UHGV virus genome: UHGV-1573643
DNA: 12,023 nt
DNA from: a virus
Strand: one strand, 5' to 3'
Each line of letters begins with the position of its first letter. Within the stretch, counting starts at the first letter, position 1. Below the pieces are notes generated by a model, which saw nothing but the letters and a program-made list of their open reading frames with translations, was not told where the DNA came from and did no database searches. The translations under genes and the position numbers were made by a program. Positions 1,839-12,023 of this stretch are shown here, piece by piece.

Positions 1839-3212
1839 CTACTTAATCAACGGCCGGAAAGCCGCCAGCACATCATCAGATCGTCCGATTGTTGAACCAC
1901 CAGGCAACGGCAACTCAAACTCAAAACGAACAGCTTTCTCCAGACTCGCCCAACTAAGGGAATCATCGTTAATGACGTGCAAATACCAGCTCTTACAGTT
2001 GAATATTGACCGCTTAATCCTGAAACCATGTACACGACACAACTGCTTCACTTCATCATCAGAGTGAAACTTCTGGTAAAACCAGTGCCCCTTCCGGTAC
2101 AACGCGGTAAAACCGTTATGATCAATAAAATAAAGCCGGCTTTTGGAACTCGCCGCTTGTGTTTGCTTCAGGACTGTTTCCAGCTCTCCACGGCTACGAC
2201 CAGAAAAGAATATTGACCCACCAGCTTTACACAGGCCTTTCAGAACCGTCAGAACGGACCATTCAGCCTCGACACTATCGACCGAGTTCAAAACGCTATC
2301 GCAAATCACGTAGTCGTAACGCCCTCGCGTTTTTAAGTCGTCCACCAGCGTATCAATCATTCGGTTTGTTGCAGCCCTATCCAGAGTGTTTCCAGCGCCC
2401 TTACGGCGGAAAAGCTCGAGATCATGCAGGTTATATCCCTTTGCCCTGAGCATTCGCGCGTAGTCTCCCTGCCCCGAACCAAAATCAATTCCTCTTGGCG
2501 TCTTGGCAATGATCGGGAGGATCAACGACTCATACAGATTTGATTTCAGGCTGCCACCATTACGCAACCGCATAAGCTGCGCATACGTCTGGATGTATGT
2601 TGTTTTCTCCAGATGAGAATACTCAAATACACCATAAGTTTTATTCAGATAACTTTGGTATTTTTCCTTCTCAACATCAGGGATCACAAACACCGTTAGC
2701 GGTGTGCGCGTCATTTTCGCTGCTAATGCATACTGAGCACAGTGAATAACCTCACCAGACTGAGTAGCAACACAACCACCCCACGGACCATACTTGATAA
2801 CCAGTTCCGCTATGTTCTTTCGAACATATGCCATTTTCGCGCGCATATTGCCTGAGATCTGGCTTGCCGATACCTGAACAAAACCATGCTTATCTTCCTG
2901 ACCGGACACCCTGCAACGCTCATCTCCGCTATCAAAATCCGTTCCGTTATGCAGTTGGTTAAACCGTACTTCGTCGTATACCGTCGTTTCACAGGGCAAC
3001 ACATACACCGCAGCACGCGTTATTCCCAACTTACGTAGCGCCTTCGTCCTTTGGTGTCCCGCCACCAGCAAATCGCCGCGCACTATCAATGGCTTCACAA
3101 GCCCCAGCTCCCTGACGCTTTCCGCCAGCCTCGCAAGATCATCCTCACCGATAAAACGCGGGTTATATTCCGCGCCGCGTAGGTGCGTTATGTCGTAATT
3201 GAGGTGAAGCAT
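1839..3212 (-). CDS. ParB/Srx-like N-terminal domain fused to class I SAM-dependent methyltransferase fold (about 457 aa)
   Basis: N-terminus KPLIVRGDLLVAGHQRTKALRKLGI parallels the ParB-like paralogs; C-terminal half has Rossmann MTase motif I IDFGSGQGDYARML, an acidic beta2 end (NLHDLELF) and YDYVICDSVLNSV. No DPPY/NPPY/DPPW motif, so substrate is unclear. Preferred start ATG 3212..3210 (GGAGG 9 nt upstream, TGATG overlap with upstream stop); alternative GTG at 3218. Confidence 0.8.
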   Translation of the reverse strand: MLHLNYDITHLRGAEYNPRFIGEDDLARLAESVRELGLVKPLIVRGDLLVAGHQRTKALRKLGITRAAVYVLPCETTVYDEVRFNQLHNGTDFDSGDERCRVSGQEDKHGFVQVSASQISGNMRAKMAYVRKNIAELVIKYGPWGGCVATQSGEVIHCAQYALAAKMTRTPLTVFVIPDVEKEKYQSYLNKTYGVFEYSHLEKTTYIQTYAQLMRLRNGGSLKSNLYESLILPIIAKTPRGIDFGSGQGDYARMLRAKGYNLHDLELFRRKGAGNTLDRAATNRMIDTLVDDLKTRGRYDYVICDSVLNSVDSVEAEWSVLTVLKGLCKAGGSIFFSGRSRGELETVLKQTQAASSKSRLYFIDHNGFTALYRKGHWFYQKFHSDDEVKQLCRVHGFRIKRSIFNCKSWYLHVINDDSLSWASLEKAVRFEFELPLPGGSTIGRSDDVLAAFRPLIK

Positions 3213-5708: not shown

Positions 5709-5977
5709 CACTCATCATCTCCTGCCGCACATACAACCTCACAAAAAACATCAGCGGAATGTTTCTTCTTGAATGAATGACGCTCAAAACCGCACTCAAT
5801 ATCAGGCGCAAAAACATCCACCACATACGGTCTTTCAGAATGTTGGTTTTCCCAACGATAAACCGTAGTGACGTTGAAATGTTTTAACGCTTCACGGAAC
5901 TCAACGCTGCCCGTCAGGTTTTTTGAGGTCAGGTATTGCAGGAGGTTTTTTACTACTTCACGGTCTTGTACTTTCAT
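5708..5977 (-). CDS. hypothetical small protein (89 aa), first gene of an overlapping pair
   Basis: ORF-track ORF; ATG at 5977 with GGAGA 7 nt upstream; about 90 nt downstream of AT-rich motif copy A. Confidence 0.6.
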   Translation of the reverse strand: MKVQDREVVKNLLQYLTSKNLTGSVEFREALKHFNVTTVYRWENQHSERPYVVDVFAPDIECGFERHSFKKKHSADVFCEVVCAAGDDE

Positions 5978-6063
5978 CGGGTTATCTCCGGTTTAACCAG
6001 GGCGGGTATCGCTCGGTTTCGGGTATAACCTTAGGAATTTTTTTCCCACCTGTAAAGCACTTT

Positions 6064-6093
6064 TTATATAAATCTATAATTATATAATTCTAT
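6064..6093 (-). promoter_or_regulatory. AT-rich palindromic motif, copy A (candidate promoter/operator)
   Basis: TATATAAATCTATAATTATATAATTCTAT; contains the perfect palindrome AATTATATAATT; overlaps the stop of the MT-A70 gene and lies upstream of the 5977 start. Related copies at 7199-7233 and 11868-11893. Confidence 0.45.
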
Positions 6094-6677
6094 GGCACTT
6101 GCCAGAGAGCATCATGCAACTGGATACCTCCGTTGCACTGGTTGCCCCAGCCATGCCAGCCATCAGGTAAATCACCGCGAGCAAACAGCTCAATACGAGG
6201 AACATCACCTAACAGTCTTACCAGCTTGTCACGAACCACATCAGGCTTCCGTGAATGTTCCAGACGAGGCGATGTAAACGACTGAATGATCCCCGCATCA
6301 AGGCGGGTCGGCAGTTTGCCTTTTACCGCAAACAAGCAATCTTCACTGTTCGCACGAGTCATATGCCCCATCCCCATCACCAGCTTATCTGGCTGTCGGC
6401 TACCACATTTGTTCCATGTGAAGCCCTTCATGGTCATAAGCCTGAACCCCCATGCTTTCACCACCAGCAACGCTTCTTCTGGCTGAGTCGGAACCCACCA
6501 CATGGCCAACAAACACGATTCAGGATTAGCAAGTTGCCAGACAGGAATACGAGCAATCTCCTCAGCTTTCATCGTTGGATACTTAAAACCAGCTCCACGA
6601 TTCCCATCCTTACACTTGTCTTTGTATTCCCAGGGGGGATCTGCATAAATCAGATTAAACAATGCAATTGCCTCCAT
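6090..6677 (-). CDS. MT-A70 family N6-adenine DNA methyltransferase (195 aa)
   Basis: N-terminal motif LIYADPPWEY (DPPW catalytic motif of the MT-A70 family); ATG at 6677 with GGAGG upstream. Confidence 0.8.
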   Translation of the reverse strand: MEAIALFNLIYADPPWEYKDKCKDGNRGAGFKYPTMKAEEIARIPVWQLANPESCLLAMWWVPTQPEEALLVVKAWGFRLMTMKGFTWNKCGSRQPDKLVMGMGHMTRANSEDCLFAVKGKLPTRLDAGIIQSFTSPRLEHSRKPDVVRDKLVRLLGDVPRIELFARGDLPDGWHGWGNQCNGGIQLHDALWQVP

Positions 6678-6986
6678 GTTAGTTGTGCCTCCGGCGCTTA
6701 TCTCCGGCAGTCATAACGCTGGCCAGCTCTACAGCAAACACAACGAAAAGGGCACTAACCAGACTGATTAATGCCCTTGCCTGTTGTGTGCCGGATATCG
6801 CCCGACAACGCTGTTTTGGTAACACGGCTACAGTTCCGTGCCGCTCCAGCTTTTACCCCTTTGCGGATAACAGGCCCTGCCTGTAACTTAGCCCCACGTT
6901 CGCCCGAAATGCGCACCAGGCACGCATAAAGATGAGCACGAAGGAAGTAACTCCACCGCGCTTATCTTTATGTGTGAGAGTGAATT

Positions 6987-7061
6987 GGTGGCCCCTACCG
7001 GATTTGAACCGATGACCGTGCGATTATGAGTCGCCTGCTCTAACCACTGAGCTAAGGGGCC
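6987..7061 (-). tRNA. tRNA with CAU anticodon (Met, or lysidine-modified Ile2-type)
   Basis: Minus-strand sequence GGCCCCTTAGCTCAGTGGTTAGAGCAGGCGACTCATAATCGCACGGTCATCGGTTCAAATCCGGTAGGGGCCACCA folds as a cloverleaf: 7 bp acceptor stem GGCCCCT/AGGGGCC, D-arm GCTC/GAGC, anticodon loop CTCATAA, T-loop TTCAAAT, encoded CCA. The 5' half matches my recollection of E. coli ileX (not searched). Confidence 0.85.
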
Positions 7062-7067
7062 ATATTT

Positions 7068-7157
7068 GATCTGTTTGTCTGGTGTGGCGCCGCGCACGAA
7101 AATCCCAGCCAATAAATTCAGGATTTTTGGGCGCGGCGGCATATCAGACAAACATGG
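7068..7157 (-). other. long imperfect inverted repeat immediately 5' of the tRNA
   Basis: Arms about 36 nt (7068-7106 vs 7121-7157) with about 5 mismatches and a 14-15 nt loop (CAGCCAATAAATTCA); outer parts TGTTTGTCTG/CAGACAAACA and the GC-rich core pair. Confidence 0.5.
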
Positions 7158-7198
7158 TTGATGCGTGCGCTCATGAGAAAAGCGCATAGAATGTTGTA

Positions 7199-7233
7199 AC
7201 TATATATTTATATAATTATAGAAATATATATTA
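7199..7233 (-). promoter_or_regulatory. AT-rich palindromic motif, copy B
   Basis: Minus-strand reading TAATATATATTTCTATAATTATATAAATATATAGT shares the 14 bp core CTATAATTATATAA with copy A; directly 3' of the Rz1 stop and upstream of the palindrome and tRNA. Confidence 0.45.
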
Positions 7234-7440
7234 CTTGGGGCAGTTGATTTCCCATGCCCTGTTATGAGCCAGAATATCTTTCTTTGTCTGGCGGTCCATA
7301 ACATCGATATCGTGATCAGTCAGGTAGATGGGCTTTACCCAATCACAGGCGGTATCAACCACCACCGGGACGCTTCCACGACTCCCGCAGCTCGCGATCA
7401 ACATCGTCATCAGCCATATGGTTAACACTCTGCTGTACAT
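7231..7440 (-). CDS. o-spanin (Rz1-like outer-membrane lipoprotein), nested in and extending past the i-spanin gene
   Basis: Signal peptide with lipobox MYSRVLTIWLMTMLIASC; reading frame embedded in the 3' part of the i-spanin gene and extending 124 nt beyond it, the overlapped spanin architecture. Confidence 0.6.
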   Translation of the reverse strand: MYSRVLTIWLMTMLIASCGSRGSVPVVVDTACDWVKPIYLTDHDIDVMDRQTKKDILAHNRAWEINCPK

Positions 7441-7633
7441 TCCCCACCTCTTTTGTCACTTCTATACGCCGCTCCGCAGTGGCTTTTACGGCGGCTGCAT
7501 TCTCATTAATGCGCTGCTTTTCAGCTTCATCTTCGGCCTTTTCTCGCCCCTTCATACGACCAAAACCAAATGCGCCGAATGCAACCAATATAATGGTGCC
7601 GATAAATGACAAAACGGCTTTCAAACCAGTCAT
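7355..7633 (-). CDS. i-spanin (Rz-like, 92 aa)
   Basis: N-terminal TM segment AVLSFIGTIILVAFGAFGF followed by a charged periplasmic segment; ATG overlaps the endolysin stop (ATGA at 7633..7630). Confidence 0.65.
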   Translation of the reverse strand: MTGLKAVLSFIGTIILVAFGAFGFGRMKGREKAEDEAEKQRINENAAAVKATAERRIEVTKEVGNVQQSVNHMADDDVDRELRESWKRPGGG

Positions 7634-8172
7634 ACCACCACTCGCTCTTTCATCCAGCCATAGACAAACGACTCATTTGCTTCGCGTTTCTCTGCCAGGT
7701 CCAGATAACGGTCGCCCTGCGTACAGTTCAGGGCCGTCAGCATTACCCGTTCGCCGTCTTTTCCCCGATTCCCAAGATAAGCACGTAATGCCGCAATGGT
7801 GCGCGGGCCGATTCGCCCATCCACATCCATATCTGGATACAACTTCCCGCCACGGTTGAAAACATTCAACCAACGTTGAAGCATCTTCGTCGCCACAGTC
7901 GGCCCCATGTTGACGCCCGTATCGCACATCTCCGCCGCAATATCAGGGGAAAATTGCGCCACTTGGTCAAAACGAGGTCCATACCAATAATCACCTTCAA
8001 GAATCATCAGTGCCTGTTCGCGGGTTAAATCGCGCATATCGCCACGGTATCCATGAGCACGGGCAGTGTTCTGAGTAATGCCCCACATTGTTGGGCCTCC
8101 CTTGTCGTCAGGGTGATCCACATAGCCGCCCTCTTTTCCAAGAATGCTGTTAAAAATCTCATCTTTGGTCAT
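7630..8172 (-). CDS. endolysin, GH108-type N-terminal domain with C-terminal peptidoglycan-binding domain (180 aa)
   Basis: N-terminal ILGKEGGYVDHPDDKGGPTMWGIT matches the GH108 signature (EGGYV.DP.D.GG.T..GIT) as I recall it; position between membrane proteins and spanins. Confidence 0.8.
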   Translation of the reverse strand: MTKDEIFNSILGKEGGYVDHPDDKGGPTMWGITQNTARAHGYRGDMRDLTREQALMILEGDYWYGPRFDQVAQFSPDIAAEMCDTGVNMGPTVATKMLQRWLNVFNRGGKLYPDMDVDGRIGPRTIAALRAYLGNRGKDGERVMLTALNCTQGDRYLDLAEKREANESFVYGWMKERVVV

Positions 8173-8455
8173 GATTAAACCCTAATGCGTCAACTATCCG
8201 CGCCAGATTGCCCCTGAAATACAGAACAACGATGCAGATAATCAGATTTCCAATAACCACCAGCCAGTGGGATTCTTGATAAAGACCGAACACATAACGG
8301 AAGGGAACATTGGCGTATACAATGACGTAGATATAAGCCAGAAAGGAAACAAATGGACGATGCCTGGAGTCTTTCCGTCGATAAAGCATCAGCGCCATTA
8401 CTATTACTGTGCAAAGCACCGCATTAATCAGTGCTGACGGGTCACTGCTTACCAT
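8159..8455 (-). CDS. holin-like small membrane protein (about 98 aa, three predicted TM segments)
   Basis: Three hydrophobic segments; preferred start ATG 8455..8453 with GGAGG 8 nt upstream (ORF-track start at 8491 is TTG and lacks SD); overlaps upstream gene stop and endolysin start by about 14 nt each. Confidence 0.55.
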   Translation of the reverse strand: MVSSDPSALINAVLCTVIVMALMLYRRKDSRHRPFVSFLAYIYVIVYANVPFRYVFGLYQESHWLVVIGNLIICIVVLYFRGNLARIVDALGFNHDQR

Positions 8456-8837
8456 TTGAACCCCCTCCACGTAAGCGGGAAAGCATTCCAAAGATGCTAC
8501 CGAGATCCTGGCTGTTTACGAACGTGAGGATTTTAATGGTCAATGCAGCCACAATAACCGCACCAAGCGCATCCAGAGGACGATCGTTGTAGCTGGTCCA
8601 TTTGGCAAGAAATGAGCCAACTAACGGCGCTCCAATCACTCCAACAATGAACGATGTAAAGAAATAGCCAATCAGCTTGAGACGGCTAATATTCACCGCT
8701 GTAGCAACATAGAAAACAGCGCCAGCAAATGCCCCGAATACAACGCCGTAATCAATACCAGTTGCAATACCAAAAACGCTGGCACCCATCAGGCCACCAG
8801 CAGCAACGGCCGTACCGGAAATTGGTTCTGCTGACAT
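8442..8837 (-). CDS. holin-like membrane protein (131 aa, Gly/Ala-rich TM segments)
   Basis: ORF-track ORF; multiple hydrophobic segments; first gene after the tR'-like terminator; ATG at 8837. Confidence 0.65.
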   Translation of the reverse strand: MSAEPISGTAVAAGGLMGASVFGIATGIDYGVVFGAFAGAVFYVATAVNISRLKLIGYFFTSFIVGVIGAPLVGSFLAKWTSYNDRPLDALGAVIVAALTIKILTFVNSQDLGSIFGMLSRLRGGGSNGKQ

Positions 8838-8850
8838 TGAAATCCTCGTT

Positions 8851-8881
8851 AAAAAAAAAGCCCCGCCGAAAAAGGCAGGGC
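8851..8881 (-). terminator. tR'-like rho-independent terminator directly upstream of the lysis genes
   Basis: 8 bp stem 8860-8867/8874-8881 (G-U wobble in minus-strand RNA), loop GAAAAA, followed on the minus strand by nine U (complement of A-run 8851-8859); only about 13 nt separate the U-tract from the holin ATG. Confidence 0.7.
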
Positions 8882-9027
8882 TTCATAAAGCAACAAATTA
8901 CGCGGTAATCGCTTAACGCAGTTTTACTACGTTAAATGAAACACTACACCCAGTTACCACCTAAAACAAGGTTTTCCCATAAAAAAACCTTCATATCGTG
9001 GTTAATCGATCAATAAAAAAGCAATGT

Positions 9028-9207
9028 TCAACTTTTTACCAACCGAACATCCCAACCAGGACTTCCATAATATTCGCCGATATGCCACTGCTTAAGTTGA
9101 GTAATCTTCTCCAACTTAACTCCCATAGAGTCCAGTTTCTGCCATGTTTTCGGTTGTATGTGCTTCATTACCCGCTCTGAATATCTGAATACTGCTCGTA
9201 AGCGCAT
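9028..9207 (-). CDS. hypothetical small protein (59 aa) in the late leader region
   Basis: Hand translation MRLRAVFRYSERVMKHIQPKTWQKLDSMGVKLEKITQLKQWHIGEYYGSPGWDVRLVKS, ATG 9207..9205 to TGA 9030..9028; weak SD (GAGA). Below the ORF-track cutoff. Confidence 0.35.
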   Translation of the reverse strand: MRLRAVFRYSERVMKHIQPKTWQKLDSMGVKLEKITQLKQWHIGEYYGSPGWDVRLVKS

Positions 9208-9231
9208 GGTTTCTCACTACAGCTTATATAA

Positions 9232-9281
9232 GTGGTTTTTCCAGCGGTTTTGCGCCGCGCTGGGCTTTTTGCAAAAACCAC
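9232..9281 (-). other. nested stem-loop element in the 178 bp gap upstream of the leader ORF
   Basis: Outer stem GTGGTTTTT (9232-9240)/AAAAACCAC (9273-9281) enclosing inner stem CCAGCG (9241-9246)/CGCTGG (9258-9263); on the plus strand the inner stem is followed by GCTTTTTGC. Confidence 0.4.
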
Positions 9282-9385
9282 AATCCATCATCCCGTAATA
9301 TTTCATCAACCCCATCCGTCGGTTGCTGAGTCTCACCCACTGCCAGACGCTAGGGGCGTTTCTACGAACTAACAGAATCTTTGCT

Positions 9386-9997
9386 TTACGGTTTTTCATC
9401 GTTTTGCTCTCCTGCGTCTCCTTTGGTGCGAATTCCAGCGGCGCGCTCGGCTTCACTTTGTTCCCAAAACCACTTGTGAAGCTCCATGAGCTTTTCGTCA
9501 ATCGGTGCATATTTGCGATTAAAGTAGGCCTGAGCATCTTTCTCAGATTCGTCCGGCAATTCGCCTGGACCAAACAGTGTGTTATAAATCCATGCCAGTC
9601 CGCTTTTAGCGTCGCCAGTCGATTGCCATTCGATAATGGCAGCCTGCATGACCAGAATGTTTTTCCCGATTAATAGGTCCAGTTCTTTGTACCTGTTGCG
9701 GATGTATGCATTCTCGCTTTGTAATTTTGCGTTGCGCTTCTCTGCGGCTTCCAGCTCAACACGCAGCTTCCCTACCGTTAGCGCAATTTCCTCGTTCTCC
9801 TGGTCACGGCGTTTTATGTATTGCTGGTTTCTTTCCCGTTCATCCAGAAGCCCCAGCACAATGTGTGGCGTTATCAAGGACTCAAATTCGGCAACAGCTT
9901 GCTCGCCTCGCTTGTAATTCTTAATCCCACCTAAATCTTTCGCGTTCTGTGCCGCCTCACGCAGTGCCTGATAGTTAATTGCTGTGCTGTTAGTCAT
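9386..9997 (-). CDS. hypothetical coiled-coil protein (203 aa); possibly Ead/Ea22-like
   Basis: ATG 9997..9995 with GGAGG upstream, overlapping the upstream stop by 8 nt; charged heptad-like middle region (LRVELEAAEKRNAKLQSENAYIRNRYKELDLL); no cysteines. Family assignment is a weak recollection. Confidence 0.65.
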   Translation of the reverse strand: MTNSTAINYQALREAAQNAKDLGGIKNYKRGEQAVAEFESLITPHIVLGLLDERERNQQYIKRRDQENEEIALTVGKLRVELEAAEKRNAKLQSENAYIRNRYKELDLLIGKNILVMQAAIIEWQSTGDAKSGLAWIYNTLFGPGELPDESEKDAQAYFNRKYAPIDEKLMELHKWFWEQSEAERAAGIRTKGDAGEQNDEKP

Positions 9998-10334
9998 TCC
10001 AGGCCTCCAGCTCGTTCTGAATCTCCTCGTCAACCTCGTCATTGGTGGCGTCTTCGTTCAGATGGTCGCGCGCCTCTTTGAGATACTGTTCACGGCGTTC
10101 GTGGTACCAGGCAGAGAACTCCGGCGACCATCCTCGATTAGCCCCCTGAAAATCTACCATCGCATTATCCTCAGCCATACGCTCGACCATGCAATCCGCG
10201 GTGGTCAGTGCAACCTCACGGATGTACCCCCGCAGGTCACGCTTACGCCAATACGGGCTATATTTTGAGTCGCAGCGACCTTTAAATTCGACGGTCCAGC
10301 GACGGATGCAGCGTGCGTTAAGTGATTTGCTCAT
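9990..10334 (-). CDS. hypothetical protein (114 aa)
   Basis: ORF-track ORF; ATG at 10334 with AGGAAG upstream; 3 nt after the upstream stop. Confidence 0.65.
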   Translation of the reverse strand: MSKSLNARCIRRWTVEFKGRCDSKYSPYWRKRDLRGYIREVALTTADCMVERMAEDNAMVDFQGANRGWSPEFSAWYHERREQYLKEARDHLNEDATNDEVDEEIQNELEAWND

Positions 10335-10336
10335 AG

Positions 10337-11020
10337 TTATGCTTCCTGAATACGCTTAAACTCAATTACCCATACCCACGGGTTAGATAGCCAGTTCTCT
10401 TGCCCGTAAATACCGCGCCAGATATCACCAAAGCCAACGCGATAAACAGCTTCAGGTGGCGTAATCTTGTACGTCGCCGGAGTTGCGCCTTCTGCTTTAG
10501 CATCTGCCTCGCTCATGTCATGCAGCCGCTCCACACGCACGTCGGTAATTTCCAGCAAAATACGCGAAGCCCAGCGCGGCATGTGAATTGATGGACACCA
10601 CCCGCCATCAAACTTTTCATTCACAGTGTGAGGCTTCCAGTCGGCATCATCGGGTATCGACCATAAGCCATAATCCCCCGGTTTTTGCTCACAACTGGCC
10701 CGATAAATCCTTGCTGCGTTCTTCTCATCGCCACGACAAAGGTTGTCGTTCCAGTCCACACTGCAACCATCCTCATTGCCTAATATCGCCCACGCTTCAC
10801 GGACCCATATGCGATCACCAACGTTACCGAACGGGCATAAACCATGTTCAGGTGCATCCATAACGTGGGTATAGACACCATTGCGTTTCTTTGTCGGTTT
10901 ACGGATAACCAGGCAGTTATCGGCCCTGACATTTTTTACAGGTCGGCGAGTCTGCGTCTTCCTTCCTTCGAGGATGGCCCTAACCATATCGTCATTAAAA
11001 ACAACACCACGTTCTTTCAT
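10337..11020 (-). CDS. ASCH/PUA-like domain protein (227 aa)
   Basis: N-terminal MVRAILEGRKTQTRR matches the G.KT.E/T.R signature I associate with ASCH-type beta-barrel domains; ATG overlaps the upstream stop (ATGA). Confidence 0.65.
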   Translation of the reverse strand: MKERGVVFNDDMVRAILEGRKTQTRRPVKNVRADNCLVIRKPTKKRNGVYTHVMDAPEHGLCPFGNVGDRIWVREAWAILGNEDGCSVDWNDNLCRGDEKNAARIYRASCEQKPGDYGLWSIPDDADWKPHTVNEKFDGGWCPSIHMPRWASRILLEITDVRVERLHDMSEADAKAEGATPATYKITPPEAVYRVGFGDIWRGIYGQENWLSNPWVWVIEFKRIQEA

Positions 11021-11175
11021 TTAGAAGCCACCTTGTTCAATTTCCGGCGACAAGACACGCAATCATCAGGACTCTCAAAAGTGTCTGGCTCACGGTAATC
11101 ACCAAAATACATCCAACGGCCGCAAATGCTGGTCACTTCACCTTCATTAAAATAATGATGTTTATTCGCCTTCAT
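11017..11175 (-). CDS. hypothetical small Cys-containing protein (about 52 aa)
   Basis: MKANKHHYFNEGEVTSICGRWMYFGDYREPDTFESPDDCVSCRRKLNKVASK with C-x17-C-x2-C; start chosen at ATG 11175 to avoid out-of-frame overlap with the upstream gene; SD weak. Confidence 0.4.
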   Translation of the reverse strand: MKANKHHYFNEGEVTSICGRWMYFGDYREPDTFESPDDCVSCRRKLNKVASK

Positions 11176-11204
11176 TGGCCTGACCCATCCGGCATTTTTC
11201 TTGC

Positions 11205-11570
11205 TCACTTCAACTCCTCCCGACGACGTTCCTGAAGCTCTAGCATTGCGGCTCGGAAATCCTGCCACCATTCTTCATCGGCTACTGGGGTGTTCCGCTC
11301 CAGCACCTTGTCCGCATCGGCGATCAGGTTTGCCAGACTCTTGTCTGAAATCTTCGTTACCGGAGTCGTTGGTTGCTCAACCTGCCCGATAGGTTTTATC
11401 GTGCTCAAAAGGAGGCGACGGCGGGAAAGTGGTGCCCCACAACGACGGCCATCTTCCTTGCGATATGTTTCTTTCGGACCAACACACCAGGTTGTCGGCG
11501 TCTCGCGCAACTTCACTTTTTTCTCACCATCATTGGTAATGATTATTCCGGTATGTGTTTTGATGCTCAT
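11205..11570 (-). CDS. hypothetical protein (121 aa)
   Basis: ORF-track ORF; ATG overlaps the stop of the winged-helix gene (ATGA at 11570..11567). Confidence 0.65.
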   Translation of the reverse strand: MSIKTHTGIIITNDGEKKVKLRETPTTWCVGPKETYRKEDGRRCGAPLSRRRLLLSTIKPIGQVEQPTTPVTKISDKSLANLIADADKVLERNTPVADEEWWQDFRAAMLELQERRREELK

Positions 11571-11848
11571 GCCACAGCCCCTCTCAACGGCTTAACTTTG
11601 GCTAATAAGGTGTTAAACAACATGGAGTTAGGATTCATGCCAAATGGCAATTCCGGTTTAGCGGAGTAGTACAGGCAACCATTTATTTTCCTGGTTGTTA
11701 TCTGTCCTTCGGCAACCATGCTTCTCAGTCTGCAACGCATAGAGTTCTGCGACACACCAATGTGCTCCGCGATTACGTCCACTTTTGAACATGGGTGATC
11801 GGTCAGGAAATTAATCACATCTTGGGGGTTAATAATTTTGCGTTTCAT
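11567..11848 (-). CDS. putative winged-helix DNA-binding protein (93 aa), first gene of the operon
   Basis: Helix-turn-helix-like segment KVDVIAEHIGVSQNSMRCRLRSMVAEGQI; ATG 11848 with AAGGA 10 nt upstream (the ORF-track start at 11869 lies inside motif copy C and lacks an SD). Confidence 0.65.
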   Translation of the reverse strand: MKRKIINPQDVINFLTDHPCSKVDVIAEHIGVSQNSMRCRLRSMVAEGQITTRKINGCLYYSAKPELPFGMNPNSMLFNTLLAKVKPLRGAVA

Positions 11849-11867
11849 TGTCGAGGCATCCTTATAC

Positions 11868-11893
11868 ATTTATATAAATATATAATTCTATAT
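11868..11893 (-). promoter_or_regulatory. AT-rich palindromic motif, copy C (candidate promoter of the regulatory operon)
   Basis: ATTTATATAAATATATAATTCTATAT; equals copy A minus the 9 bp CTATAATTA; ends about 20 nt upstream of the 11848 ATG. Confidence 0.45.
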
Positions 11894-11916
11894 ACGGCGG
11901 GAGACGTCCCGCCGTA
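11893..11916 (-). other. perfect 10 bp hairpin (possible terminator of upstream gene or operator)
   Basis: TACGGCGGGA-GACG-TCCCGCCGTA; on the minus strand it is followed by the A/U-rich motif copy C, not a clean U-tract. Confidence 0.45.
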
Positions 11917-11948
11917 GGCTTACTGTCAGGCTTTCAATAGCGATTCTT

Positions 11949-12023
11949 TTAGATATCGGGCATCAGCCAGGGCGTTTGGAGTAATCTTGCGAACCCATGC
12001 ATTACGGGTTGGACTCCACTTAA
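11949..12023 (-). CDS. 3' end of an upstream gene (partial; 24 codons in window)
   Basis: Open minus-strand frame from the window edge to TAA at 11951..11949 (...LSGVQPVMHGFARLLQTPWLMPDI*). Too short to assess. Confidence 0.3.
   Translation of the reverse strand, partial: LSGVQPVMHGFARLLQTPWLMPDI

Follow-up and report, generated by a model that had tools for sequence, protein, structure and literature searches.

Phased all-A/T box arrays of an enterobacterial phage-plasmid as probable sites for a plasmid-encoded protein, with a ParG-like partition protein as the candidate reader

The viral genome UHGV-1573643, analysed as one strand of 12,023 nucleotides (the window), carries three AT-rich palindromic motifs at the boundaries of transcription units. 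We found that each of them is an array of 32 bp of pure A/T, in which four 8-bp boxes make up two 16-bp quasi-palindromes of the form TTATA-N6-TATAA, and that the three belong to a set of eight such arrays on a phage-plasmid of enterobacteria. Judged from the sequence comparisons given below, the motifs are very probably specific sites for a plasmid-encoded protein. With a good deal less assurance, we lean towards one protein in particular, a ParG-like partition protein encoded outside the window; which protein binds, and whether the binding represses, activates or tethers, is something that we infer.

6064 to 6095: array A, four 8-bp boxes, TTATATAA ATCTATAA TTATATAA TTCTATGG, forming two abutting 16-bp quasi-palindromes
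7200 to 7231: array B, four 8-bp boxes, CTATATAT TTATATAA TTATAGAA ATATATAT
11862 to 11893: array C, four 8-bp boxes, TTATACAT TTATATAA ATATATAA TTCTATAT

Arrays A, B and C hold exactly four boxes each, in an 8-bp register, and G/C-containing DNA bounds them at both edges. Three words taken from the motif occur far more often in the window than expected: the 14-mer CTATAATTATATAA has 7 matches with at most 2 mismatches against 0.04 expected, the 11-mer TTTATATAAAT has 6 with at most 1 mismatch against 0.39, and the 16-mer TTATATAAATCTATAA has 11 with at most 3 mismatches against 0.11, every one of the 11 falling inside A, B or C. The arrays are also the only motif-type stretches with at least 22 of 24 positions A+T in a window of 47% GC; the one further A+T run, at 663-689, has a different sequence. 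The initial annotation, which was made from the letters of the window alone, had reported three copies of an AT-rich palindromic motif with copy B inverted, and the copies do lie essentially where it placed them and far above chance. Palindrome scoring (30 bp at 95% for B, 24 bp at 94% for C, 28 bp at 83% for A) and the opposite orientations of A and B, as told from the one box that contains C/G, bear out the remainder of that description. Its statement that copy C is copy A without 9 bp needs correction, as the difference is one 8-bp box and C has an extra box on the other side, so that both have four.

The window is the reverse complement of approximately 13.5-25.8 kb of our reference element, plasmid p48 of strain 1428 (NZ_CP023368.1; L001). 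Circular E. coli plasmids of about 48 kb, from 51 complete genomes, match 85-95% of the window's length with 96-99% identity, and there are matches as well to three isolated Yersinia myophages (vB_YpM_39, 41 and 44). The family of about 48 kb is present in at least 51 complete E. coli genomes, in Salmonella and in Klebsiella, and also occurs as the isolated Yersinia phages; E. coli ATCC 25922 has a member of 48,488 bp. L001 encodes RepA, ParA, a toxin-antitoxin pair, a CI-like XRE/S24 repressor, lysis genes and a full myovirus structural module. Because it combines RepA/ParA plasmid functions with that structural module, the element is a phage-plasmid and not an integrated prophage. The SSU5/pSLy3 group was ruled out as its identity, being a different and larger family of phage-plasmids. 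For comparison we used a Salmonella Weltevreden plasmid (L002), the phage-plasmids of Serratia marcescens (L003/L005) and of a Serratia sp. (L006), two conjugative plasmids of the MOBC/MPF_T type (E. coli NZ_CP037908.1, L004, and Cronobacter pESA2, L010), a metagenomic relative (L021), Yersinia pestis pTP33 (L007) and an Erwinia phage-plasmid (L008).

A scan of L001 for A/T runs and for the 16-mer placed eight arrays, starting at 2992, 7924, 8632, 8705, 12459, 13676, 18340 and 19476. All eight are within 3-20 kb, the plasmid and early half of the element, and none is in the structural genes. The 16-mer has 29 matches in L001 against 0.76 expected, 26 of them in arrays and always in the 8-bp register. 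Isolated partial matches (TTATAYAAATCT...) also occur inside tail genes, at 34430-34445, 37847-37862 and 40141-40156; these three are single half-sites, slightly above the approximately 0.8 expected, and are probably due to chance. Every array is intergenic and immediately upstream of a transcription or translation start region, and it is for this reason that we favour co-regulation of the units behind them. The partition locus has three of the eight: two precede parA, and the third lies in the 43 bp that separate parA from the gene for a protein of 82 amino acids (aa); the other five, the window arrays among them, lie outside the locus, directly upstream of what appear at the sequence level to be start regions.

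L001 7955 to 8608, minus strand: parA, 217 aa, a small Walker-type ATPase
L001 7663 to 7911, immediately downstream of parA: gene for the 82-aa ParG-like protein

ParA has Pfam matches to CbiA, ParA and MipZ that begin at residue 5, that is, without an N-terminal DNA-binding domain, and it is of the small type Ib size; its best NCBIfam match, ParA_partition, scores 78.6 bits, under the 180-bit equivalog cut-off. The 82-aa protein begins with a disordered, low-complexity N-terminal half that is basic, which an extended stretch, MAFNVDPEF, and then two helices follow. Its AlphaFold2 (AF2) model, with a mean predicted local distance difference test score (pLDDT) of 65, has no regular secondary structure in residues 1-46 and helices at 47-59 and 62-81. 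A search of the PDB with a profile of four homologues gave as its best match, weak at E=0.069, the ribbon-helix-helix (RHH) repressor SvtR (2kel). Taken together, parA, the 82-aa gene and the arrays appear to have the layout of a type Ib partition system.

Upstream of parA there are two four-box arrays in L001 and L002, both of which have a third array between parA and the small gene; the marcescens plasmid, L004 and pESA2 have the same parA layout with A/T repeats of their own, less regular than four 8-bp boxes. A word-indexed protein search returned close relatives only, and the RHH lineage of the small protein, whose Serratia marcescens counterpart is encoded at CP083756.1 32079-32321, is present in about 100 PLSDB plasmids. 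What the conjugative plasmid L004 has in common with the phage-plasmid is limited to ParA (45% identity), the RHH protein (41%), a RelE/antitoxin pair that was acquired recently and has beside it a truncated remnant of the promoter cassette described below, and a weakly similar RepA. All-A/T arrays related to those of the phage-plasmid (the perfect palindrome CTATAAAAATATAATTATATTTTTATAG is an example) nevertheless occur in both L004 and pESA2: ahead of parA, in the spacer that follows it, and scattered through intergenic gaps among type IV secretion system (T4SS) and mobilisation genes. Since the other candidates lack homologues in one or another of the array-bearing replicons examined, the pair of ParA and the small protein is the sole trans-acting candidate common to them.

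Distant homologues of ParA and the RHH protein are found in pTP33 and the Erwinia phage-plasmid, where the upstream repeats (3050-3130 and 12130-12200, respectively) are TCATCAC / CATTCACTC and are reminiscent of the heptad of omega and of the ACTC box of ParG. We had considered these homologues as a guide to the motif, but their ATCAC/CACTC-like repeats are unrelated to it and were uninformative.

The positions of the motifs, on whose conservation in related elements the initial annotation had made its reading depend, are kept at all eight sites in the Salmonella plasmid L002, although L002 aligns to the window only in blocks and the flanks are only about 70-87% identical where they can be aligned. 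Blocks of homology have an edge at an array or cassette (B for the end of 7069-7230, the cassette's 3' end for the start of 5950-6913), which places the arrays at module junctions. In the Serratia phage-plasmids (L003/L005 and L006) arrays occur at homologous sites, namely at cassettes with the same promoter and leader, at two sites upstream of parA and at an equivalent of C. The latter carries the same ...AAGGA-N-CTCGACAATG initiation region, with unrelated genes behind it. Of the two Serratia elements, only the marcescens plasmid has an array in the parA-RHH spacer; in L006, and in a Pantoea locus, the spacer is too short for one. That Pantoea locus, the only one to come out of a scan of genome contigs, has the same gene order and S-like boxes in the sense defined by the following counts of exact arms.

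Exact matches to TTATA-N6-TATAA (E-type) and to TTAAA-N6-TTTAA (S-type):
Window: E-type 3, S-type 0
E. coli L001: E-type 9, S-type 0
Salmonella L002: E-type 11, S-type 1
Serratia L005: E-type 0, S-type 5
Serratia L006: E-type 0, S-type 5

The change between the two types is one base in each arm, symmetric about the centre, and it extends over the whole replicon, a pattern that points to a dimeric plasmid-encoded binding protein co-evolving with its sites. Such a concerted change would not be expected of a promoter hexamer or of a host-factor site, and it seems hard to reconcile with generic AT-rich promoter DNA. What the initial annotation had called a shared operator class rather than random AT-rich DNA is thus upheld in the sense of a common class of cis-element, located at transcription-unit boundaries and keeping its positions in relatives.

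Array A heads a portable cassette, and array C a shorter unit, as follows.

5975 to 6095, minus strand: 122-nt promoter-leader cassette, comprising array, promoter, 5' leader, ribosome-binding site (RBS) and ATG
6051 to 6056, minus strand: predicted -35 element, TTTACA, deduced from conservation
6028 to 6033, minus strand: predicted -10 element, TAAGGT, likewise deduced, 17 bp from the -35
6032 to 6048: second palindrome, TGGGAAAAAAATTCCTA, in the promoter spacer and overlapping the -10, consensus TAGGA-N7-TCCTA
5995 to 6018, minus strand: leader stem-loop, AACCGAGCGATACCCGCCCTGGTT, just upstream of the RBS
5975 to 5991, minus strand: RBS (GGAG) and ATG of an 89-aa gene, at the 3' end of the cassette
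11846 to 11863, minus strand: short initiation unit of the parA type, AAGGATGCCTCGACAATG, immediately behind array C

The cassette is present in L001 in three near-identical copies (2992-3113, 12459-12580 and 19476-19597), which are 122-nt direct repeats ending at the ATG of three unrelated genes; the copy at 19476 is that of array A. An alignment of 13 cassettes from four lineages (L001, L002, L005 and L006) shows a constant order of lineage-specific array, 7-nt linker, -35, an invariant spacing of 17 bp, -10, leader, GGAG and ATG. The equivalents of the -35 in Serratia cassettes are TTGCAG, TTGATG, TTGCAA and TTGTGC, and those of the -10 are TATGGT in Salmonella and TAATAT in most Serratia cassettes, most Serratia cassettes reading TTGCAG-17-TAATAT. 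TTTACA-17-TAAGGT itself is below the threshold of a strict sigma70 scan; its position, spacing and key bases (TT.... / TA...T) are invariant in the 13 cassettes. The T.GGA and TCCTA columns of the spacer palindrome are invariant as well, and this palindrome is probably a candidate operator for another repressor. In the leader stem-loop the two outer pairs covary, being A-U in Escherichia and Salmonella and G-C in Serratia. Counted from the start that the predicted promoter would give, about 7 nt behind TAAGGT and near 6021, array A lies at about -43 to -75, upstream of the -35, a placement that would suit an upstream operator, an activator site or competition with an UP element, not occlusion of the core promoter. 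Pfam searches with the genes that the cassettes precede suggested no function apart from DUF3560 and a DUF2513 match under the threshold.

A phage-plasmid cassette truncated by IS26 also lies at 1441-1500 of L004, a cfr plasmid, beside a RelE/antitoxin pair that is 97% identical to that of the phage-plasmid. The remnant and the pair together indicate a recent exchange between phage-plasmid and conjugative plasmid.

Behind the parA-proximal array, which contains a perfect TATAAT, the initiation region (A)GGA-N-CTCGACAA(A)TG occurs in every lineage, and it occurs again, before an unrelated gene, behind the C-type array (copies at L001 8609-8630; L005 9010-9025 and 14093-14107; L006 22095-22110 and 27712-27728). 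Because the same initiation region stands behind the parA-proximal array in all lineages, C looks like a copy of what would be the autoregulated parA operator/promoter, set before other genes, the winged-helix gene here and unrelated ones in Serratia. The shared region could be either a duplicated unit of operator and translation-initiation region or a conserved mRNA target.

The long open reading frames of the window are all on the minus strand, and the following features adjoin the arrays.

6090 to 6677, minus strand: MT-A70 family methyltransferase gene, its 3' end overlapping array A
7231 to 7440, minus strand: 69-aa lipoprotein-like gene with a LIASC lipobox, the last gene of the lysis region, its stop abutting array B
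6986 to 7061, minus strand: tRNA gene, anticodon CAT, the only one in the window, downstream of array B
11567 to 11848, minus strand: 93-aa gene, weakly winged-helix-like, downstream of array C
11894 to 11915, minus strand: GC-rich, terminator-like hairpin ACGGCGGGACGTCTCCCGCCGT, 5 nt after the stop of the DUF3560 gene (11920-11922)

The observation that each copy comes right after a stop codon holds for all three arrays. Array A overlaps the last codon and TAG stop (6090-6092) of the methyltransferase gene; array B shares 1 nt with the TAA (7231-7233) of the lipoprotein gene and is 139 bp upstream of the tRNA gene; array C follows the hairpin behind the DUF3560 gene and lies between it and the translation-initiation region of the winged-helix gene. 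As an intrinsic terminator the hairpin is wanting, its stem being followed by ATATAGAATT with no T-run; a terminator scan of 11500-12023 was negative, and terminator scans around A, B and C found none.

Several observations weigh against a regulatory partition protein as the reader of the arrays. The assignment of the 82-aa protein to the RHH class is weak by sequence, and the mean pLDDT of its model is only 65. It has no match in Pfam (E<=1) or NCBIfam, Foldseek of the monomer model gave no meaningful match, and hhalign, run with a ParG sequence checked against 1P94, matches residues 40-78, in register, to residues 35-73 of ParG, its RHH domain, at a probability of only 13%. For want of a Pfam match, because of that low probability, and because 1P94 was not recovered in the PDB profile search at E<=10, we file the protein as ParG-like in its predicted architecture and not as a member of the ParG family. 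The contrast between E-type and S-type arms comes from few independent lineages and is confounded with phylogeny, and the metagenomic relative L021, whose strand reads MHFNVDPEF, mixes TATA- and TAAA-type boxes. We had entertained a code by which A, S or G at the variable strand residue would go with TATA and N with TAAA; it was dropped, since the mixed boxes of L021, which has H there, leave no simple correspondence of residue to base. A strict sigma70 consensus scan found no promoter in 5900-7300 or 11500-12023, and none is recognisable after B or C; the cassette of A has a predicted sigma70-like promoter that is conserved in four lineages. The cassette array is upstream of the -35 rather than over the core promoter, which makes simple occlusion less than obvious; a role as activator site or as UP-like element is equally conceivable for it. 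Our literature search found no paper describing this phage-plasmid of about 48 kb or its array family. Finally, all-A/T DNA also attracts H-NS, IHF and Fis.

A rival view is that no dedicated plasmid protein is involved, and that the arrays are UP elements, clusters of -10-like TATAAT sequences or curved DNA for H-NS, IHF or Fis that was copied along with promoters. All-A/T tracts are typical targets of H-NS and Fis, the cassette array is at the position of an UP element, and there are TATAAT-like hexamers in the arrays. A symmetric, plasmid-wide switch from TTATA to TTAAA between lineages in related enterobacterial hosts, however, is not expected of generic AT-rich DNA, and the Serratia-type boxes lose the resemblance to TATAAT while keeping their positions. 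The strict 8-bp phasing, the fixed four-box length and the sharp G/C boundaries speak for a defined site, and arrays also fill intergenic gaps inside T4SS operons. We consider this explanation unlikely. Rather unlikely too, in our estimation, is that the same RHH protein binds but that A, B and C are non-regulatory, serving as extra centromeres or riding as passengers of cassettes, mainly to provide homology for module exchange. The phage-plasmid N15 has four separate natural centromere sites bound by SopB (IR1-4), the homology blocks between the window and L002 are bounded by arrays or cassettes, and three direct repeats of 122 nt could drive recombination; in TP228 the operator and parH arrays are both proficient as centromeres (PMC3130281). 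Against this, all eight arrays are intergenic and upstream of start regions, and two distinct array-headed units are conserved before different genes, which suggests selection for a regulatory link over a centromere role that would not depend on location.

Among other proteins that might read the arrays, the initial annotation pointed to the winged-helix protein encoded next to copy C, which would autoregulate from C and control the other units. Array C is indeed immediately upstream of this 93-aa gene, the protein has sub-threshold, winged helix-turn-helix (HTH)-like Pfam matches (FaeA, E=0.007; HTH_24, E=0.015), and E. coli as well as Salmonella plasmids with E-type arrays have the gene. Both Serratia phage-plasmids and L004, however, lack a detectable homologue, and the annotation of pESA2 includes none, although all of these replicons have arrays; the C-equivalent in Serratia precedes unrelated genes, and arrays are densest at parA, not at the winged-helix gene. 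We therefore regard this protein as a very unlikely reader. The CI-like XRE/S24 immunity repressor (L001 9226-9882) has attractions of a different kind, as in the phage-plasmid P1 many scattered operons are under dispersed C1 operators, and the repressor gene here adjoins the par locus and is conserved, though diverged, in all of the phage-plasmid lineages. Its divergent promoter region has no A/T array, but at least four copies of ACCACA-N3-TGTGGT instead (ACTACA-N3-TGTAGT-like in Serratia), and L004 and pESA2 have arrays without a homologue of the repressor. That the arrays are its dispersed operators is most unlikely. In all, at least five copies of ACCACA-N3-TGTGGT surround the repressor gene (L001 9883-10055 and 9150-9200), and these palindromes are presumably the operators of the repressor. 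Three further candidates were set aside: the HTH antitoxin of the toxin-antitoxin pair, which is 97% identical in L001 and L004, whereas the native arrays of L004 differ and the Serratia plasmids carry other toxin-antitoxin systems; the ParB/Srx-domain proteins of the window, which have no homologue in L004 or the Serratia plasmids; and the 124-aa protein encoded upstream of parA, which has none in L004.

If a ParG-like partition protein is the reader, several RHH dimers would coat each 32-bp array cooperatively, and the arrays of the par locus would serve, in the manner of type Ib systems, both as centromere and as an operator for autoregulation. Through the five dispersed arrays, further transcription units would then come under the same partition protein. 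For A the site is the head of a portable 122-nt cassette (promoter TTTACA-17-TAAGGT, structured leader and RBS), for C the head of a short parA-type operator/initiation unit before the winged-helix gene, and for B the interval that separates lysis genes and tRNA; a role as extra centromere sites is possible for the dispersed arrays too. Only tentatively do we extend this to a general scheme, in which an RHH partition protein might be a replicon-wide master regulator in enterobacterial phage-plasmids and small conjugative plasmids. The arrays would tie accessory (possibly anti-defence) modules, the phage tRNA, the post-lysis unit and T4SS genes to segregation and copy number, would double as dispersed centromeres and as joints for module swaps, and could be re-tuned by the change from TTATA to TTAAA.

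The closest parallel in anatomy is ParG of plasmid TP228, which recognises 4-bp boxes separated by 4-bp AT spacers (a period of 8 bp), in either orientation and with one dimer per box, in both operator and centromere (PMC3130281), and this matches the anatomy of the arrays found here. Like the ParG/parH-OF system, the phage-plasmid has a small ParA followed by a protein of approximately 80 aa with a flexible basic N-terminal tail and a C-terminal domain that appears RHH-like, and the arrays are upstream of the ATPase gene, have a period of 8 bp, allow either box orientation and are in an AT-rich context. The boxes, however, are pure A/T (TTATA/TATAA arms) where TP228 has ACTC, and there are four to an array in place of 8 and 12; the array between parA and the RHH gene and the five dispersed arrays are additional, and the similarity to ParG is not significant. 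The proposed logic of one partition protein with several operator arrays is that of omega. This RHH protein of the Inc18 plasmid pSM19035 binds 7-bp heptads, direct or inverted, at several promoters, and is both a regulator and the partner, in the role of ParB, of the ATPase delta. Omega is a protein of Firmicutes, with WATCACW heptads, a period of 7 bp and three target regions, whereas here there are at least eight arrays, a phage context and portable cassettes.

KorB of the IncP plasmids RK2/RP4 is likewise a partition protein and a global regulator, with 12 dispersed palindromic operators near or far from promoters. Its OB sites are scattered (PMC5016525). KorB, however, is a large HTH/CTPase ParB of type Ia that spreads or slides from a single 13-bp palindrome, unlike the small RHH-like protein and multi-box arrays considered here. 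As in the linear N15, also an E. coli phage-plasmid, the putative partition-protein sites are separate and do not form one tandem centromere; those for SopB are reportedly scattered over the N15 genome, in work of Ravin and Lane from 1999 and of Grigoriev and Lobocka from 2001. N15 differs in having a type Ia SopAB system and single 16-bp GC-rich inverted repeats, where the phage-plasmid has type Ib-like A/T multi-box arrays fused to cassettes. The three 122-nt cassettes resemble the CUP repeats of the IncN plasmid pKM101, which are said, in work of Delver and Belogurov from 1997, to be copies of a promoter-operator cassette that put different genes of the plasmid under one shared plasmid regulator; they exceed the 122-nt cassettes in length, have an unrelated sequence and another regulator, and have no link to a partition protein. 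Among other RHH proteins, MetJ binds tandem 8-bp met boxes as cooperative dimers, and Arc binds a pair of subsites spaced by one turn of the helix. Either geometry could accommodate the 8-bp boxes and the 16-bp quasi-palindrome, whose arms are 11 bp apart, but MetJ and Arc are chromosomal or P22 regulators with different sequences and no role in partition. The present arrays would stand apart from known systems in having boxes of nothing but A/T, always four to an array, in the additional array in the parA-RHH gap, in being fused to portable cassettes and in belonging to a phage-plasmid.

Some observations on the window fall outside the arrays. The tRNA gene at 6986-7061 is called tRNA-Met by ARAGORN, while RefSeq gives the identical gene of L001 as tRNA-Ile (lysidine type); among Rfam covariance models run on the window the tRNA was the sole match, and there was none to the cassette leader or to the arrays. 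Long imperfect hairpins stand on both sides of the tRNA gene, one transcriptionally upstream (7085-7140, with arms GCCGCGCCCAAAAATCC and GGATTTTCGTGCGCGGC) and the other, a 25-nt inverted repeat, transcriptionally downstream (6921-6976); these may be processing or terminator structures. At 560-830 on the minus strand, upstream of the ParB/Srx-terminase late region, is a non-coding stretch of approximately 560 bp with low GC (25-35%), in which TCTTT(T)AACC recurs three or four times (AGATCTTTAACCAATG, AATCTTTTAACCAAAAC and TTTCTTTAACCTGTTG are examples); its role could be that of a late-promoter region or of one for an activator.

Clinical Enterobacteriaceae commonly carry phage-plasmids, and how these coordinate phage genes with plasmid functions is little understood. 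If the proposed role of the partition protein is correct, one small protein would connect segregation of the element with the dosage of the protein itself and with expression of at least five further units, and the logic of KorB (IncP) and omega (Inc18) would extend to a phage-plasmid and to widespread small conjugative plasmids. The E-type and S-type sites, with their matching protein variants, would offer a natural system for studying how RHH proteins read all-A/T DNA, and array-headed cassettes, by marking the boundaries of modules, would be an aid to annotation and to understanding how these elements swap their cargo.

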